A stretch of DNA of 18,068 nt from Candidatus Xenobia bacterium. GTDB taxonomy: Bacteria > Vulcanimicrobiota > Xenobia > Xenobiales > QWHO01. Positions 3,668 through 17,523 of the stretch are shown in pieces. Both the position numbers and the translations under genes were made by a program. The notes under the pieces are model-generated. The model was not told the origin of the DNA. It searched no databases and saw nothing but the letters and a program-made list of their open reading frames with translations. Position 1 is the first letter of the stretch; each line of letters opens with the position of its first letter. The stretch is from NCBI GenBank assembly GCA_045863235.1, contig BTUM01000123.1, positions 1-18,068 on the forward strand, given 5' to 3'.

Positions 3668-4245
3668 CCAGGCAGCGCGCTCACACCCTGGTTGAGGTCC
3701 TGGTCACGGGGAGCCTGCTCATCTTCCTGCTGGGGATGATCCTGACGATCTACTCCAACGGATCCAGCGCTCTTCGCAAGACCGAGGCCCAGTCGGACCT
3801 GCAGGGTACCGTGCAGACCATCGTCTACCGGCTCAGCCGCGACCTGCAGCGAGGCTCTCCGGCGGGGCTCTCCATCTCCGGATCAGAGGATGCCATCAGC
3901 GTCGCCGTGCCCGACGCCTTCGGCTTCGACGACAATCACGATCTCAACTACGGACGCTATATCGTCTATTATCTGCAAGATCAGATGCTGTATCGGCGTG
4001 AGGTGGAGATCGACGCGGACAACCCGGCCAGCACGAGCGCCATGCCCATCGAGGATTTCCAGGGTCTGGGGCTGGACTCGTATCGCACGGACGGGGTGCT
4101 GGTGGGTCGCGGGATCATCGAGTTCAAGGTCAGCGCCGGGGGCGGTGAGATGGTGAGCGTGACCGTGACTGCCGAGCAGAAGCGCTACGGAAAGCCGACT
4201 CCCGATACCTTCAGCCTGACCACGGGATTCCAGCTGCACAACTGA
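3664..4245 (+). CDS. Prepilin-type protein (PilW/GspJ-like)
   Basis: MTRQRA|HTLVEVLV signal followed by a hydrophobic helix and RLSRDLQRG, a PilW/GspJ-like motif. GTGA overlap with the upstream gene. Confidence 0.8.
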   Translation: MTRQRAHTLVEVLVTGSLLIFLLGMILTIYSNGSSALRKTEAQSDLQGTVQTIVYRLSRDLQRGSPAGLSISGSEDAISVAVPDAFGFDDNHDLNYGRYIVYYLQDQMLYRREVEIDADNPASTSAMPIEDFQGLGLDSYRTDGVLVGRGIIEFKVSAGGGEMVSVTVTAEQKRYGKPTPDTFSLTTGFQLHN

Positions 4246-5765
4246 TGGCCGATAGAGCCCACCCCGATCCCGAGCAACAGGCCATCGAGGCCATGCGCAA
4301 GCAGTTCCCGGGCATGTCCGAGACCCAGATTCGGGCCGCACTGGCTGGCCTCAGCGACGACAGGAGCGGTCGACAACTCAGCGACGACAGGAGCGGTCGA
4401 CAGTTGGGCGCTCCGAGCCCGCCTGCTTCTCCGCCTTCGCCCGAGGGCCAGGCGGTGCACACGCTGCTCGAGAGTTTCCCGGGCCTGTCCGAGGGGCAGG
4501 TACGCGGGGCCCTCAAAGGCCTGGGCCCGAGCCAACCCGAGCCCGTCGCGCCGCCACCGGCGCCGCCCGAGCCCCGGTTGGCCGCCGGGCAGTCTGCTCC
4601 AGAGCCCCGAGCGGCCGGAAAACAGCCTCCTCCCAGGCCGGAAACCCGGCCGGCTGGGAAGCAGCCTCGTCCTGCCGAGAAGGCCCCCGCACCCCCCCTG
4701 GCGCCGGTCAGCGCCGGGGCGGGCCCGGTTCCCCCCGCCCTGGTCGTGGCCTTCTTTCGCAGGCTGCAGGTGATGGTCTCAGCCGGCACCCCGGTGCACT
4801 CGGCGCTCGACTTTCTCGCCGAAGAGCCCAATCCTCGGCTGCGCCTGGCCATTCGCGACGTGCACTATCGAATCAGCTCGGGCACGCAGCTCAGCCGTGC
4901 CCTGCAGGCCCATCCCCGGGTGTTTCCTCCCCTGGCCGTGCAGATGGTCCAGGCCGGGGAGACCACGGGGCAACTGCACGTGACGCTCGGCAGCCTGGCC
5001 GACTATCTCGAGAAGTCCCTGAACCTGCGGAGGCGTTTCGTGGCGGCGCTGGCCTATCCGGGCATGATGGCGGTGGTGGGCCTGGCGGTGGTGGCCATGC
5101 TGGCCCTGATCGTCTTCCCCAAGGAGCGCGAGGTCTTCGAGGGGATGGGAGCGGAGCTTCCCTGGATCACCCGCGCGGTCACAGGCACCTTCGAGCTCAT
5201 TTTCAACCCGGTCACCGTCATCTCGGTTCTGGTGGTGGTGACCACCCTGGTCGTGTCCTGGCCCATGCTGGGGCACTCCTTCTACAACGCCCACCTTCGC
5301 TACCCGGTGGACGCCCTGCTGCTGCGCATCCCCTTGCTGGGCCGATTGATCGAGCAGGCCGCCATCGTCCGGATGCTGACGGCCATGGCCACGTTCATGG
5401 AAACGGGCATCCCCATGACCGGGATGCAGGCGGTTGGGCGTCTATCCGGCAACCTGGTCATCGAGCGACGGTTCAACGCTTATCTCCAACTCATGCGAAA
5501 CGGCTACACCATCGCCCAGGCCATGGAGCAAGCCGATCTCTTCCCTTCGATGGTGCTGCAGATGTTTCGCCTGGGTGAAGAGCACGGCAGGCTGGATTTC
5601 TTGATGCGCAAGACGGCCCGGATGCTGGAGGAAGACCTCGACTACAGCCTGGAGACCCTGACGGCCCTGCTCGAGCCCCTGCTCATGGCCGCCATGGGGG
5701 TCGTGGTCGGGATCATCGTGATCGCCAGCTCGCTGCCCACTTTGCAGCTGCTGCAAAAGCTCTAG
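4245..5765 (+). CDS. pilC: Type II secretion system F family / type IV pilus platform protein with ~165-aa N-terminal extension
   Basis: Two T2SSF domains (FFRRLQVMVSAGTPVHSAL...AGETTGQL and MFRLGEEHGRLD), the motifs ALAYPG and LLEPLLM, and three hydrophobic segments. TGATG overlap with the upstream gene. Confidence 0.9.
   Translation: MADRAHPDPEQQAIEAMRKQFPGMSETQIRAALAGLSDDRSGRQLSDDRSGRQLGAPSPPASPPSPEGQAVHTLLESFPGLSEGQVRGALKGLGPSQPEPVAPPPAPPEPRLAAGQSAPEPRAAGKQPPPRPETRPAGKQPRPAEKAPAPPLAPVSAGAGPVPPALVVAFFRRLQVMVSAGTPVHSALDFLAEEPNPRLRLAIRDVHYRISSGTQLSRALQAHPRVFPPLAVQMVQAGETTGQLHVTLGSLADYLEKSLNLRRRFVAALAYPGMMAVVGLAVVAMLALIVFPKEREVFEGMGAELPWITRAVTGTFELIFNPVTVISVLVVVTTLVVSWPMLGHSFYNAHLRYPVDALLLRIPLLGRLIEQAAIVRMLTAMATFMETGIPMTGMQAVGRLSGNLVIERRFNAYLQLMRNGYTIAQAMEQADLFPSMVLQMFRLGEEHGRLDFLMRKTARMLEEDLDYSLETLTALLEPLLMAAMGVVVGIIVIASSLPTLQLLQKL
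4350..4403 (+). repeat. In-frame 27-bp tandem duplication (LSDDRSGRQ x2) in pilC
   Basis: ctcagcgacgacaggagcggtcgacaa (4350-4376) and ctcagcgacgacaggagcggtcgacag (4377-4403) are 26/27 identical. Confidence 0.95.
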
Positions 5766-5783
5766 CCGGGACTCGGTAGTCCA

Positions 5784-5817
5784 CTCGTGCGCGACCGTAG
5801 GCCCGCGCGAGGTGTCT
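5784..5817. repeat. 34-bp direct repeat, copy 1 (imperfect palindrome)
   Basis: ctcgtgcgcgaccgtaggcccgcgcgaggtgtct, 33/34 identical to 6760-6793. Confidence 0.95.
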
Positions 5818-5921
5818 ACGGGGCCAGTTCACACTATCGTTACACAATCTTTACCAGCCTGAAACCTCGCGGCAACAGGCCTCCCCAGACTCTTGCGCTA
5901 TCCGCGGCACACAATGAGGGC

Positions 5922-6755
5922 ATGGAACCTTCCTTTGCATTCTTACTCCGAACTCTTCGGCGCGAGGCCGGGCTGACCCAGAAACAGCTCGGCGACGCGA
6001 CGAACATTCGTCAGCGACAGATCTCGCGATTCGAGCGTGACCAGGCACTGCCCACCCGCGAGCAACACGCCCGAATCGCGCGGGTGCTTCAGCGCGATCC
6101 CTCAAGGCTCGGCAGAGCGCTCTTCAGGCAAGAGCAAGGACGCAACGGGCTCGCGCCGCTCCCTCACGGATTTCTCCAGCACTTCGGGCGCAGCCCGAAA
6201 ATGCACGAGCCCACCACGAGTGTTTCGCTGACTGCCAGGATCCACACCGCCATCGGCGACGATTCTGGCTTCGAGACCCTCGCTCGGGCGGCTCTCCAGG
6301 AGCCGGGATTTGCGCGGTTTGTCGCGGTGGCGCCCTCTGACTCTTCGGAGGAGGCCCGCTGGTGGGTGGGCCTGAGCTTGCAGGGGGCGCGCTTCTCGCC
6401 GTTCACGCACGCGCGCCTGGGTTGGGAGGGCCCGCCCATTATCCCCTACGGGGACCATCGTTGCGCCTGTGGCAGGCTGTGGCCCGCGCTCTATGTCGAG
6501 AGACCAGTGCCGATGGTGTTTTTCCCTCAGGTCCGCATCAAGACCCCGGCGGGCTTCAGACGAGTGGACGTGAACGTGGCCATGGCGGGCAAGGGATTCT
6601 TCGCAGTCGAGATCAACGGGGAAGGCCATCGGGGAGCGCGAGACCACCTCCGCTCCGGCGAACTGGGCATGGATGTGGTCTACCTGAGTCCAGCGGACGT
6701 GCGCTCAAAGTCCCTGGTCGAGCTCGTCTTGAGCCGGCTTCGAATCGGGCCGTAG
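5922..6755 (+). CDS. XRE-family HTH fused to a C-terminal DUF559/Vsr-like (PD-(D/E)XK superfamily) nuclease-like domain
   Basis: The HTH is LRTLRREAGLTQKQLGDATNIRQRQISRFERDQALP. The C-terminus FFPQV...RRVDV...AVEINGEGH...D.LR..LG..VVYL parallels the DUF559 pattern Q..D..E(V/I)DG..H..D..R..G. Start set at ATG 5922 (277 aa) rather than GTG 5787, which lies inside the repeat. Confidence 0.75.
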   Translation: MEPSFAFLLRTLRREAGLTQKQLGDATNIRQRQISRFERDQALPTREQHARIARVLQRDPSRLGRALFRQEQGRNGLAPLPHGFLQHFGRSPKMHEPTTSVSLTARIHTAIGDDSGFETLARAALQEPGFARFVAVAPSDSSEEARWWVGLSLQGARFSPFTHARLGWEGPPIIPYGDHRCACGRLWPALYVERPVPMVFFPQVRIKTPAGFRRVDVNVAMAGKGFFAVEINGEGHRGARDHLRSGELGMDVVYLSPADVRSKSLVELVLSRLRIGP

Positions 6756-6759
6756 CCTG

Positions 6760-6793
6760 CTCGTGCGCGACTGTAGGCCCGCGCGAGGTGTCT
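6760..6793. repeat. 34-bp direct repeat, copy 2
   Basis: ctcgtgcgcgactgtaggcccgcgcgaggtgtct. It begins 5 nt after the HTH gene stop and abuts the response-regulator stop codon at 6794. Confidence 0.95.
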
Positions 6794-7606
6794 TCAGCCC
6801 CAGAGGTGAGTATACAGCTCTTGCAGCATGAGCGCCTGAGCCCGGCTTTGCTCGGGCAACAGGCGCAGGTGCGCCGCCACGGCCACCTGCTCCTGGTTGA
6901 CCTCGCCGTCGCGGACGCGCTGATAGAAACGGGCGAAGCGCTCAGGCTCGACCCCGCCGGGAGAAGGCCTTGGGATGAACATGTCGGCGCGGGAGAGGGC
7001 CGCCATCCGGTCGATCTGGCACTGGTAGGCCTGGGCCAGATCGGGGTGACTCGCTTCCTCGCGCACCAGCTTCTCGAGCTCGTCCCAGATGGAGAGCGCC
7101 TCCTCCCGGCCCAGCTTGCGCGAGCGCACCCCCACGTAGAAGCTCTGGTAGCTCAGGTCGCGCAGCTCTTCCCAGGGACGCTCGAGGCGGGCGCTCTGGG
7201 GCAAGAGCCCGCGCAGCATGCTGAGGTAGCCTTCCTTCTCGCGGCCCTTCTCCAGCACGCGCTTCACGATCACCAGCAGCTGCTTCACCTGGAAGGGCTT
7301 GTAGATGTAGTCGTCGGCGCCCAGTCGCATGGCCCGGGTGGGAGCGTCCTGGCTGGCATAGCCGGTCATCACGATGCTCTTGAGGCCAGGCTGGGCCTGG
7401 CGCAGGGCCGCCAGGCATTCCAGGCCGTCCATGCCCTCCATGCGAACGTCCGTCAAGAACAGGTCCAGCTTCTTGCGCGAGGCCACCTGGATGGCCTCCG
7501 GGCCCGAGCGGGCCTGGTTGACATCGAAGCTCTGGGTGGTGAAGAACTTCACCAGTAGCGTGCGCAGTGCGTCGTCGTCCTCGAGGATCAAGAGGGTCTT
7601 TCCCAC
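6794..7606 (-). CDS. Response regulator (REC domain + uncharacterised helical C-terminal domain)
   Basis: LLILEDD, FLTDVRMEGMDG (phospho-acceptor Asp), VMTGYA and YIYKPF. The real start is probably GTG at 7606; the upstream part of the 853-aa ORF is antisense to the kinase gene. Confidence 0.9.
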   Translation of the reverse strand: MGKTLLILEDDDALRTLLVKFFTTQSFDVNQARSGPEAIQVASRKKLDLFLTDVRMEGMDGLECLAALRQAQPGLKSIVMTGYASQDAPTRAMRLGADDYIYKPFQVKQLLVIVKRVLEKGREKEGYLSMLRGLLPQSARLERPWEELRDLSYQSFYVGVRSRKLGREEALSIWDELEKLVREEASHPDLAQAYQCQIDRMAALSRADMFIPRPSPGGVEPERFARFYQRVRDGEVNQEQVAVAAHLRLLPEQSRAQALMLQELYTHLWG

Positions 7607-14776: not shown

Positions 14777-15184
14777 CTACCAGATCACGGTGACTTCAGG
14801 GTGCCTTCCGATTTCGGGGTCGCGGGTGAGGAGCGGGCAGTCCAGGTGGACGGCGGTGGCGGCGATCAGCCGGTCGGTACGCTCGGGGATGGCGTAGAGC
14901 TCTTCGGCCCGCAGCACGATTTCCACTGTCAGCTCAACCGGAAAGAAGGAGCCGGTCGCGACAAGACCCGATACCCACGCCCGGGCGCCGCCAGCCAGCT
15001 CGAGCGCGCCGCTGCGGGCTGCCTCGAGAATTTCCACGATTGCCACGGTGGGAACATACAGGGCAGCCAGGCCCCGGTCTGCGTTCTCGAGCACGCGACG
15101 CGCCTGCTTGCCCAGTCGCTTCCACTTCTTCTGGGCATACCATATCAACGCATGGGTATCCACGACCGCCAGGTGCGTGCTCAT
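14777..15184 (-). CDS. vapC: Type II toxin, PIN-domain (VapC family)
   Basis: VVDTHALIW, VPTVAIVEI, DRLIAATA and LLTRD carry the conserved PIN acidic residues. ATGA overlap with the antitoxin gene. Confidence 0.92.
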   Translation of the reverse strand: MSTHLAVVDTHALIWYAQKKWKRLGKQARRVLENADRGLAALYVPTVAIVEILEAARSGALELAGGARAWVSGLVATGSFFPVELTVEIVLRAEELYAIPERTDRLIAATAVHLDCPLLTRDPEIGRHPEVTVIW

Positions 15185-15498
15185 GGCTCGAACTCGGTGA
15201 GTCTCCGGCGGGCCCGCTCGGCCTGGAGCTTTCGGCCTTCGGCCAGCGCCCTGTCCAGCTCTTCATCCGAGAGGCTGCTGGTGATACTGCCCGCTAATCT
15301 GAAGGGTCGGCTGGCCTGTTTACGCAACTCCTCGACCATCGTCTCCAGGTAGCGAAGGTGGCTGGCGGTTGTCAGTGCCATCGTCTCGGGCAGGTCGCGA
15401 TGTTCCACCAGGATCACCTGCTCGGGGTGCGAGGAAAGGAACTTCGCGATCTCCGGCAAGCGACCGCGGGCCTCAGAGATGTTCAGTTTTCGATTCAT
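15181..15498 (-). CDS. Type II antitoxin, Phd/YefM-like
   Basis: MNRKLNISEARGRLPEI...VILVEHR is a Phd-like N-terminus and the gene lies directly upstream of the PIN toxin. Start is ATG 15498, or alternatively 15516. Confidence 0.8.
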   Translation of the reverse strand: MNRKLNISEARGRLPEIAKFLSSHPEQVILVEHRDLPETMALTTASHLRYLETMVEELRKQASRPFRLAGSITSSLSDEELDRALAEGRKLQAERARRRLTEFEP

Positions 15499-15515
15499 CT
15501 GGCGCGACCTGTCCA

Positions 15516-15561
15516 TGTACTTGTACTGTTTCAGTGTACCAGGCGGTCCCGCGCGAGTCAA
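15516..15561 (-). promoter_or_regulatory. Sigma70 promoter and probable autorepression operator of the TA operon
   Basis: Minus strand TTGACT (15561-15556), 17 bp, TACACT (15538-15533), with extended TG. GTAC palindromic cores at 15517-15520, 15523-15526 and 15536-15539. Confidence 0.75.
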
Positions 15562-15623
15562 CGCCTGCAAGCGTCTTGAGCTGCCAGCCACCAGCAGCTC
15601 GCTCACGCATCACTCTGCTAGGA

Positions 15624-15664
15624 GCGCAGCCGGAAACCCCCTTGACACGGTTTTCCGGCTGCGC
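15624..15664. terminator. Strong hairpin downstream of SUI1 (terminator-like)
   Basis: gcgcagccggaaa (15624-15636) / tttccggctgcgc (15652-15664) is a perfect 13-bp inverted repeat. There is no flanking U-tract. Confidence 0.5.
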
Positions 15665-15681
15665 GACGCCCTCCATGTTGT

Positions 15682-15792
15682 GCTAGAAGTTCGGCCGCCT
15701 ACACCATCTTGTGGTGGCGGAGGCGGGGGTAGGGGCCCCCGAGAGCGTAGCTCCTCCGACACCACATGGGGGTTTGCGGCCGGACTTCTAGC
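15682..15792. repeat. 111-bp palindromic element with 17-bp terminal inverted repeats (MITE-like or structured RNA)
   Basis: gctagaagttcggccgc (15682-15698) / gcggccggacttctagc (15776-15792) has one G-T pair. Inner stem is tgtggtg-g-cggagg / cctccg-a-caccaca. Confidence 0.7.
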
Positions 15793-16126
15793 CTCCGGCC
15801 CGCTTGACCTTGATTCCCCGCTCGCCCAGCAGCTTCTCGATGGCCTCGCGGTGATCGCCCTGAATCTCCAGGGTCTGGCCCTTGAGGGCCCCGCCCGTGC
15901 CACAGCGGGTCTTGAGCGTCTTGAGCAGCTCCTTCAGGCCGGCCTCGTCCAGGGGCAACTCGAAGAGCACCGTGACCGCCTTGCCTCCCCGGCCCGACTT
16001 TTCCAGCCGCATCTTGGCCGGGCCTGAGGACGGCTTCGAAGGGGTCTTCCTGGCCGCGCAGGCGCAGGGTGTCTTCTGGCACTTCGGGCACCAGTTCTCG
16101 TCGGTGCTGTAAACGAACTCCTTCAC
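15788..16126 (-). CDS. yciH: Translation initiation factor SUI1/eIF1 family protein
   Basis: FVYSTD...CPKC..PC.C, RLEKSGRGGKAVT, LKTRCGTGG, LEIQGDHRE and a C-terminal KRAGG. The GTG start at 16126 overlaps the stop of the GGDEF gene (GTGA). Confidence 0.93.
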   Translation of the reverse strand: MKEFVYSTDENWCPKCQKTPCACAARKTPSKPSSGPAKMRLEKSGRGGKAVTVLFELPLDEAGLKELLKTLKTRCGTGGALKGQTLEIQGDHREAIEKLLGERGIKVKRAGG

Positions 16127-17523
16127 GGCGCGTACACCGTCACCCGGTCGCGTCCCTCGCGCTTGGAGGTGTAGGCCGCCTCGTCGGCCAGCCGGTGCAG
16201 CTCCTCGGGCCCTTTCGTGGCCTCGGGATAGGAGGCGATGCCCACGCTGACGGTGGCCCGCAACCAGACCCCCTGGTCGACCACGAAACTGGTCTCGCGC
16301 ACGCGCCGGGCGAAGTCGGTCAAGAGCAGGCGGGCCGCCTCGCCGTTCAGGCCTGGCATCAGCACCACGAACTCGTCTCCGCCGTAGCGCAGGCACACGG
16401 CCGGGGGAGGCAGGCACGCGCGCATGAGCGCTCCCAGATCGCGCAGCACCACGTCGCCGGCCTGGTGGCCGTAGGTATCGTTGATGCCCTTGAAGCGGTC
16501 GATGTCAAAGAGCGCCAGACTGAGCGAAGACTTCTGCTTCACCGCTTCCCTGCAAAGGGTCGGAAAACGCTCTTCCAGCAGGCGCCGGTTGCCCAGGCCG
16601 GTGAGAAGGTCGACGCTGGCTGAGCCGGCCGTGGTGGAGAGCGAGCGGATGCGCCCGGCCAGGCTGGCCAGCACCTGCTCGAGCAACTGGGGATAGTGGC
16701 GCAACAGGCTGCGGAACTGGCCACTCTCCAGGGCCACCACCCGACAGGCCGTTCGGGCGCGCACGGTGGCCGAGTGGGGCACCTGATCGAAGCTGGACAG
16801 CTCGCCGGCCAGATCGCCCGGCCCCAGCTCGCGCAGCACCACCTCTTGCTCGCCCAGCACCTCCAGCCGTCCCTCCTGCACCAGCACCACCTCCCCGGCC
16901 GGGCTGCCGGCGCTCCAGAGCAGCTGGCCTTGAGCCAGGCCGTGAGCGTGTCCTTCTCGGCGCCATTCCTCGAGCAAGGCTTCGCAGGCCGGCGCGTCGG
17001 GCTGCACCGGGGTGCCCAACAGCCAGCTCAGAATCGTGCTCGGGCCTCCCGGATCCTGGTCGATCACCATGTCAGCCTGACGCCTGGCAGCTCTCACCCT
17101 GGCGTAGACCTGGCGCAGGTAGTCCTCGGGCACTCGCTCCGTGCCCAGGCGCCCGGCGTTGCGGCGCAGGCCCAGCTCGAGGCTGCAGGTCACCAGCACC
17201 TTGAGCAGGCGGGCCCCCAGGCGTCGGGCCAGGGTGGCGATGGGGCGGATGCGCCCCGGCTCGAGGTAGTTGCCGTCGAGCACCACGTGGTGCCCATCCC
17301 GGGCCGCGCGCTCGGCCATGACGCGCATTCCCTCGTAGACGCTGGGACGGATGCTGGCCACGAACGAACGCCCGGCGATCATCTCGCGCAGGGGGTCGGT
17401 GCCCAGGTAGATCAGCGGCGGAGTGCCGCCCAGGGCTCGATAGCGAGCCACCAGCTCGCGGGCCAGCGAACTCTTCCCGGCCGCGGGAGGGCCGAACAGC
17501 AAGACGATGGAGCCAGGGGGCAT
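16123..17523 (-). CDS. Diguanylate cyclase with N-terminal P-loop kinase (AAA_33-like) and cNMP-binding domains
   Basis: Kinase part: Walker A GPPAAGKS, VVLDGNY and lid RRNAGR. cNMP part: LGPGDLAGELSSFDQVPHSATVRA. GGDEF part: DLLTGLGNRR, DIDRFKGINDTYGHQAGD, RYGGDEF and SKREGRD. Confidence 0.9.
   Translation of the reverse strand: MPPGSIVLLFGPPAAGKSSLARELVARYRALGGTPPLIYLGTDPLREMIAGRSFVASIRPSVYEGMRVMAERAARDGHHVVLDGNYLEPGRIRPIATLARRLGARLLKVLVTCSLELGLRRNAGRLGTERVPEDYLRQVYARVRAARRQADMVIDQDPGGPSTILSWLLGTPVQPDAPACEALLEEWRREGHAHGLAQGQLLWSAGSPAGEVVLVQEGRLEVLGEQEVVLRELGPGDLAGELSSFDQVPHSATVRARTACRVVALESGQFRSLLRHYPQLLEQVLASLAGRIRSLSTTAGSASVDLLTGLGNRRLLEERFPTLCREAVKQKSSLSLALFDIDRFKGINDTYGHQAGDVVLRDLGALMRACLPPPAVCLRYGGDEFVVLMPGLNGEAARLLLTDFARRVRETSFVVDQGVWLRATVSVGIASYPEATKGPEELHRLADEAAYTSKREGRDRVTVYAP

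Follow-up and report, generated by a model that had tools for sequence, protein, structure and literature searches.

Layout of the locus

In the 18,068-nucleotide stretch analysed here (the window; genome G000, 97.6% complete), a single 277-codon gene lies between the convergent genes for a pilC-like protein and a response regulator and is enclosed by two copies of a palindromic repeat (Table 1). The locus is intergenic with respect to these host genes and contains neither a self-splicing intron nor an intein. The original prediction, that a one-gene unit framed by two 34-bp repeats sits between the ends of pilC and the regulator, describes this layout correctly: the 34-mers (5784–5817 and 6760–6793) agree at 33 of 34 positions with a period of 976 bp, pilC ends at 5765, and the second copy abuts the stop codon of the regulator (6794–6796, minus strand). 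Their extent, however, was underestimated, the full palindrome being 44 bp long (5776–5819) and lying at the heart of a tandem unit of 62 bp. The second copy lacks the last 2 of these 44 bases, and the TAG stop of the 277-codon gene falls within its GTAG.

Table 1 Features of the locus, with other genomic sites of the upstream motif (window positions unless a contig of G000 is given)
Feature	Position	Strand	Remarks
pilC-like T2SSF gene, left host flank	4245..5765	+	Pfam T2SSF, E 5.9e-47
Repeat copy 1, full 44-bp GTAG…CTAC imperfect palindrome	5776..5819	no strand	includes the 34-mer 5784-5817
Shortened linker	5820..5826	+	16 extra bases here in strains of runs X3 and X9
AT-richer promoter-like region	5827..5921	+	GTTCA start, GGCAA box, -10-like hexamer at 5910-5915
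277-aa gene, XRE-HTH + Vsr/DUF559-like (predicted) nuclease	5922..6755	+	stop codon inside copy 2
XRE HTH domain, residues 5-62	5934..6107	+	Pfam HTH_31, E 9.7e-11
Vsr/DUF559-like domain (predicted), about residues 135-273	6324..6740	+	profile and model comparison
Linker-like remnant, translated as the last codons of the gene	6740..6751	+	homology to other alleles stops at 6739
Repeat copy 2, 42/44 bp, fused to regulator stop	6752..6793	no strand	includes the 34-mer 6760-6793
Response regulator gene, right host flank	6794..7540	-	Pfam Response_reg, E 3.5e-21
Motif site outside the family	C12:110002-110090		upstream of RecQ gene
Motif site outside the family	C1:346285-346373		upstream of ComEC gene
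Motif site outside the family	C26:58823-58911		upstream of weakly SpoVG-like gene
Motif site outside the family	C61:44661-44749		upstream of weakly HicB-like gene

A scan of the 8.36-Mb genome with the 34-mer, allowing up to 9 mismatches, gave four sites (the two window copies, C7:25338 and C39:60134), all of which extend to the 44-bp imperfect palindrome GTAG-N4-CTCG…CGAG-N4-CTAC. With four copies at three loci in G000 and five copies at four loci in G003 (a genome of the same genus that is, like G002, about 65% complete), the repeat is far less numerous than typical REP families; it is not an abundant REP unrelated to the gene, but is tied to the gene family described below.

Each copy had been described as an imperfect hairpin. 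The palindrome is indeed present, but the 34-mer folds no better than shuffled sequences (z about −0.76), and no terminator-like site was found at either copy; the reading of the repeat as a strong hairpin or terminator was therefore rejected. No sigma-70 promoter was found, and a known RNA family was dismissed because a search of the locus against Rfam gave no match below E 0.49. Both junctions are crossed by contigs of run X2 (5404–5889 and 6719–6922), which shows that the full allele did not arise in assembly. As predicted, none of the 14 window ORFs that were scanned with Pfam (of 76 mechanical ORFs) showed a domain of an integrase or a transposase.

Other repeats and genes of the window may be recorded here. 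At 1280–1333 lies a solo copy belonging to the repeat family of the 62-bp array beside the paralog on C64, and the 5′ part of pilC contains an in-frame 27-bp tandem duplication (4350–4402); sequence similar to the latter occurs at many places in G001–G004, so that the duplication is a copy, within a gene, of some other repeat family. An intergenic stretch at approximately 15608–15686 resembles, by eye, a repeat of roughly 100 bp that is present in 181 regions of G000; a nuclease-only fragment at C28 has one copy shortly downstream. At 14777–15606, a PIN-domain gene (Pfam E 1.7e-12) follows an unannotated 141-aa gene, likely as a VapBC-type toxin–antitoxin pair, and 16123–17523 encodes one 466-aa protein that fuses AAA_33 kinase-like, cNMP-binding and GGDEF domains.

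The encoded protein and its predicted nuclease domain

Residues 5–62 of the 277-aa protein constitute an XRE HTH domain (Pfam HTH_31/HTH_3) that matches the structure of the P22 c2 repressor (Z 12.2, r.m.s.d. 2.2, 66 aligned). An AlphaFold model of the whole protein, built on an alignment of 71 sequences, has a mean pLDDT of 92.6; a model of the C-terminal domain alone, made from one sequence, was discarded (pLDDT 34.7). Across the 71 family sequences, E144, D216, E230, G233 and H236 are invariant, with Q203 and D241 being nearly so; the residues of the predicted E-D-x-H-D catalytic motif are thereby kept. When 34 C-terminal domains were combined into a profile, this matched one built from eight DUF559 proteins (probability 92.7, E 4.2e-7, 54 columns) in an alignment that pairs D216 and E230-x-N-G-x-x-H236. 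The DUF559 profile, for its part, matches both 3hrl and I-Bth0305I (3r3p), a homing endonuclease that has E-V-N-G at the position matching the E-x-N-G of the family. Comparison with Atlas clusters of DUF559/MTES_1575 gave a feature score of 0.92 and TM values of 0.54–0.61, the latter under the Atlas naming bar.

Pfam DUF559 (PF04480) had no match in G000 at its gathering score and matched two of the 34 C-terminal domains below cut-off (best E 0.014); the C-terminal profile returned nothing significant from PDB sequences and NCBIfam. Since the family thus falls below the Pfam DUF559 cut-off, and PDB fold searches with the full-length model were filled by matches to the HTH only, the nuclease assignment rests on profiles and predicted models. 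These point to a product that is likely an XRE-HTH fused to a predicted Vsr/DUF559-like nuclease domain: the fusion originally proposed holds for the HTH by Pfam and for the C-terminal domain by profile and model likeness.

An empty site and a relocated ortholog

In G003, contig C8 carries pilC, one intact 44-bp copy and the regulator. This empty site has the arrangement foreseen for removal of the unit, a single repeat between the two convergent genes, and its presence together with the full allele supports the predicted polymorphism. In run X1, one contig (depth 6.5) joins pilC and copy 1 directly to 11 bases after copy 2, while another contains the gene, copy 2 and the regulator; the former join, from copy 1 to the regulator, could be an empty allele, the alternative being a graph artefact. 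No further empty alleles were found in runs X9, X11, X12 and X14, whose cover is patchy. At the same site G001 has neither repeat nor nuclease gene, and a DUF3592 gene instead. The difference between G000 and G003 may reflect a gain in the former or a loss in the latter.

G003 nevertheless possesses an ortholog of the gene, 93% identical and on a different contig from pilC and the regulator; its homology with the window locus runs from about 5814–5827 to 6739. A metagenome contig (L129) that is 97% identical to the G003 ortholog locus places the gene about 850 bp downstream of an array of the window’s repeat (three full units spaced 62 bp, plus partial units), with a DUF433 gene in between. 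The G000 site matching this locus, on C7, holds a solo repeat copy and no nuclease gene. On contig C69, G003 retains a repeat copy, the linker and the first promoter bases, the same arrangement that precedes the gene in X3 (contigs from an RNA run) and X9. No relative spanning both flanks of the solo copy on C39 was found. Between G000 and G003 the gene shows a dN/dS of 0.13 and a dS of 0.26, the regulator a dS of 0.28 and pilC a dS of 0.34; the gene's dS thus resembles those of the neighbouring host genes, and its relocation took place inside the lineage, with the same repeat found at both places. The first 8 bases of copy 1 are those of the resident copy at the G003 empty site, and the first 8 of copy 2 are of the array type.

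The repeat is present in G000 and G003, both with a close ortholog of the gene, and at 2 mismatches it was not found in G001, G002 and G004, all of which are without one; at 3 mismatches these three genomes gave 1, 0 and 6 scattered, unlike matches, respectively (controls, 0–2). Viral contigs contained neither a relative of the protein nor a match to the repeat, and a phage origin was rejected on this ground.

Most genes of the family lie beside a repeat of their own

G000 encodes nine full-length paralogs, the other eight being about 24–29% identical to the window protein. For eight of the nine, the flank contains a repeat with both local and distant copies (random genes, 23/600); the flank of the ninth reaches the end of its contig and has 12 distant matches. 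The repeats of the eight other paralogs are mutually distinct, each occurring at 2–15 loci. Across several genera a local repeat accompanies 36 of 55 distinct family loci, compared with 17 of 300 control genes, these drawn from G000 only; none is seen at the remaining 19, of which 6 have truncated flanks. The periods of the arrays are often 60–64 bp, with recurring sub-periods of 21–23 bp, and most arrays lie downstream of their family gene and are dispersed genome-wide. The family was found in 19 of 151 genomes of the phylum, all of them in the class of G000, with up to 15 members per genome among the at most 16 candidates scored in each.

Most orthologs are syntenic and the gene is under purifying selection: of the eight G000 paralogs with an ortholog of >70% identity in the genus, six are syntenic, the exceptions being the window gene and the paralog on C29. 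What is observed across the family is a pairing of gene and repeat, a different repeat for each paralog, and mostly vertical inheritance. In non-syntenic pairs, a similar repeat was found in 4 of 13 with protein identity >55% (all four from one clade) versus 1 of 328 with <45%. Over all non-syntenic pairs the correlation between protein and repeat was not significant (rho 0.08, p 0.14; 4 of 32 rows dropped, having no usable flank).

These data bear on the nature of the bracketing repeats, which had been likened to an att-site duplication. They are neither att sites nor target duplications made on insertion; each is one of the dispersed copies of a palindrome that lies at the centre of a 62-bp tandem unit. 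Nor does such a reading hold as a general rule: only the window gene among the nine paralogs is bracketed by its repeat, and the repeat is on both sides at 8 of 55 family loci. A lack of flanking repeats at the paralogs had been named beforehand as an outcome that would speak against the element; the other paralogs are indeed without flanking direct repeats, but they lie beside arrays of their own. Together with the synteny of six of eight orthologs, this also speaks against a self-contained element. That the unit moves autonomously as a minimal mobile element, integrating site-specifically at a hairpin as a circle of 976 bp so as to leave attL/attR or a long target duplication, is highly improbable, even though it would fit an empty site with one copy, a copy 1 that starts like the resident copy and a copy 2 that starts like the array type, and the direct orientation of seven of the eight both-sided loci. 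It fits poorly with a single copy per genome, differing junction spacers among strains, a gene dS equal to that of host genes, the unbracketed state of eight of nine paralogs, the mostly syntenic orthologs and the lack of a relative in viral contigs; in eight runs no circle joint was seen at contig level, where joints need not appear.

Fusions of XRE-HTH and PD-(D/E)XK domains are common in defence systems, and the ortholog adjoins a DUF433 gene. One might therefore regard the gene as a stand-alone defence or addiction gene, a self-regulating HTH plus nuclease whose repeats serve as operator or decoy arrays for the HTH. PADLOC matches of the window protein are limited to its HTH, a single one of the 71 family members matches a restriction-enzyme model, weakly, and arrays that lie mostly downstream and are dispersed over the genome are not what operators would lead one to expect; this explanation we consider very improbable.

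Several loci illustrate how gene and repeat may be arranged or separated. At L130:2501-3602, a sister gene (43% identity) stands with a 40-bp tandem array; the corresponding G000 site is without the gene, with one flank inverted, and the L130 repeat is still dispersed in G000, where no such gene was found. On L078/L021 (G004:C16), a sister gene (44% identity) lies between inverted arrays whose unit has a 13–14-base core in common with the window repeat, the best but a weak match among 27 flanks. At L143 (G000:C23:17466-17640), a promoter motif is joined directly to a repeat, and G001 likewise has retained a promoter and a repeat at the place of the G002 gene. As G002:C349 has a family gene between motif and repeat, the gene has been cleanly deleted in G000 and G001, with the repeat persisting. 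Repeats can thus outlive their gene (L130 and L143/C23). Of the 14 abundant repeat families of G000, seven have no adjoining family gene; one of the seven that do is the 181-region repeat, next to the nuclease-only fragment.

A shared upstream motif

A family-wide motif of ~90 nt precedes the genes; it has a GTTCA box, a GGCAA box and, 6–7 nt before the ATG, a −10-like hexamer. In G000 it has 19 matches at E<0.01, against none in the reversed genome; the window copy scores weakly (E 1.3), its hexamer being 6 nt before the ATG. The spacing suggests that the window gene is likely leaderless, and we infer that the motif is a leaderless, co-regulated promoter. It also precedes genes for RecQ and ComEC, and genes with weak similarity to SpoVG and HicB (Table 1), so that the genes behind it may possibly form an undescribed regulon for DNA uptake or repair.

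The motif before comEC and the RecQ helicase gene (19 versus 0 in the reversed genome) would suit a nuclease with a host job, employed in repairing or processing incoming DNA under common regulation with comEC and recQ, and not acting on the repeats; these would then arise otherwise and collect next to the family genes, and host recombination from copy to copy would passively bracket, move and delete the gene. Direct repeats of 34–44 bp do permit host recombination, repeats exist as orphans without a family gene, and purifying selection and synteny suit a host gene. Left unexplained are the different repeat beside each paralog, the enrichment of repeats over random genes and the recurrence of one repeat at the two sites that the relocated gene occupies, and the window promoter is itself a weak match to the motif. 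We consider this explanation, the foremost rival of the model favoured below, unlikely, though not fanciful.

Comparison with known systems

Like insertion sequences and att-integrating elements, as generally known, the unit has an empty site and is bounded by direct repeats; unlike them, it has no transposase or recombinase domain and no multi-copy spread, and the repeats at its borders belong to a dispersed family that was there beforehand. The profile match to DUF559 (PF04480) and REase_MTES_1575 (PF18741; PDB 3hrl) covers the D…E-x-D/N-G-x-x-H…D core, but that is a stand-alone domain of about 110 aa, whereas the window protein, at about 277 aa, also has an HTH and a middle part that is helical, and its family is below the Pfam cut-off. 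DUF559 genes are listed in PMC9881135 as enriched at predicted inversions.

The EDxHD homing endonuclease I-Bth0305I (PMC3239194) similarly combines an N-terminal DNA-binding region with a C-terminal Vsr-like domain carrying E, D, x, H and D residues. Its DNA-binding region consists of NUMOD repeats rather than an XRE HTH, and its target is an uninterrupted host allele rather than a multi-copy palindrome; the window gene, moreover, is free-standing and lies outside any intron or intein.

There are close parallels with REP/REPIN–RAYT systems (REPtrons, TIRtrons). In these (PMC3733652; bioRxiv 10.1101/2021.07.10.451892), a single-copy, mostly vertical gene stands beside its own dispersed extragenic palindromes, several gene–repeat pairs can occur per genome, and repeats outlast the gene; the 44-bp repeat of the window is likewise extragenic and dispersed and has a terminal GTAG. 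The RAYT, their defining enzyme, is an HUH/Y1 tyrosine transposase (PF01797), whereas here the enzyme is an XRE-HTH/predicted Vsr-like nuclease; the repeats of the window family form head-to-tail arrays of about 62 bp, wholly different between paralogs, and GTAG is not common to the repeats of the other paralogs. A search for Y1_Tnp or RAYT-type transposases gave no match in G000 (97.6% complete), and a RAYT-driven REP reading was therefore rejected. Many bacterial palindromic repeat families are without a known mobilising enzyme, among them, according to PMC3733652, the CGTC REPs. In a literature survey that covered main texts, largely those in open access, no paper on a pairing of HTH-nuclease and palindrome was found. 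The family likely represents an undescribed partnership of enzyme and repeat, parallel to bacterial REP elements but with an unrelated enzyme.

A proposed cut-and-repair model

We favour, as probable on the sequence comparisons above, a model in which the nuclease, passed on mostly by vertical descent, would bind its own repeat and nick or cut it, and repair would multiply and homogenize the repeat and sometimes move the gene. The HTH would recognize the dyad boxes of the cognate repeat, and the predicted Vsr-like domain would nick or cut it through an E/D-x-H site; host repair of the RecA/RecQ type, possibly during DNA uptake, would then expand, homogenize and disperse the repeat. Rarely, a segment comprising linker, copy, linker, promoter and gene would recombine into a solo copy such as that between pilC and the regulator. 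Insertion into a resident single copy would leave direct repeats, as at the window locus, and recombination between the two copies would reverse the insertion and give the empty site.

More tentatively, and as a possibility short of an even chance, bacterial repeat populations may have a second engine that works with an unrelated enzyme: Vsr-like nucleases guided by their HTH, as many as 15 in one genome and co-induced with comEC and recQ, each cutting its own palindrome, with repair copying the repeat and the gene occasionally homing into a solo copy. If so, the window locus, with its full allele, empty allele and donor arrangement, would be an example caught in the act. HTH-nucleases each with a different repeat would provide a cut-and-repair route to repeats that lack a mobilising enzyme, and such a family would offer a naturally occurring set of nucleases, each specific for a sequence and with a predicted target. 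The locus makes the idea directly testable, since the enzyme and its putative target, the empty allele and, within one genome, non-cognate controls have all been identified.
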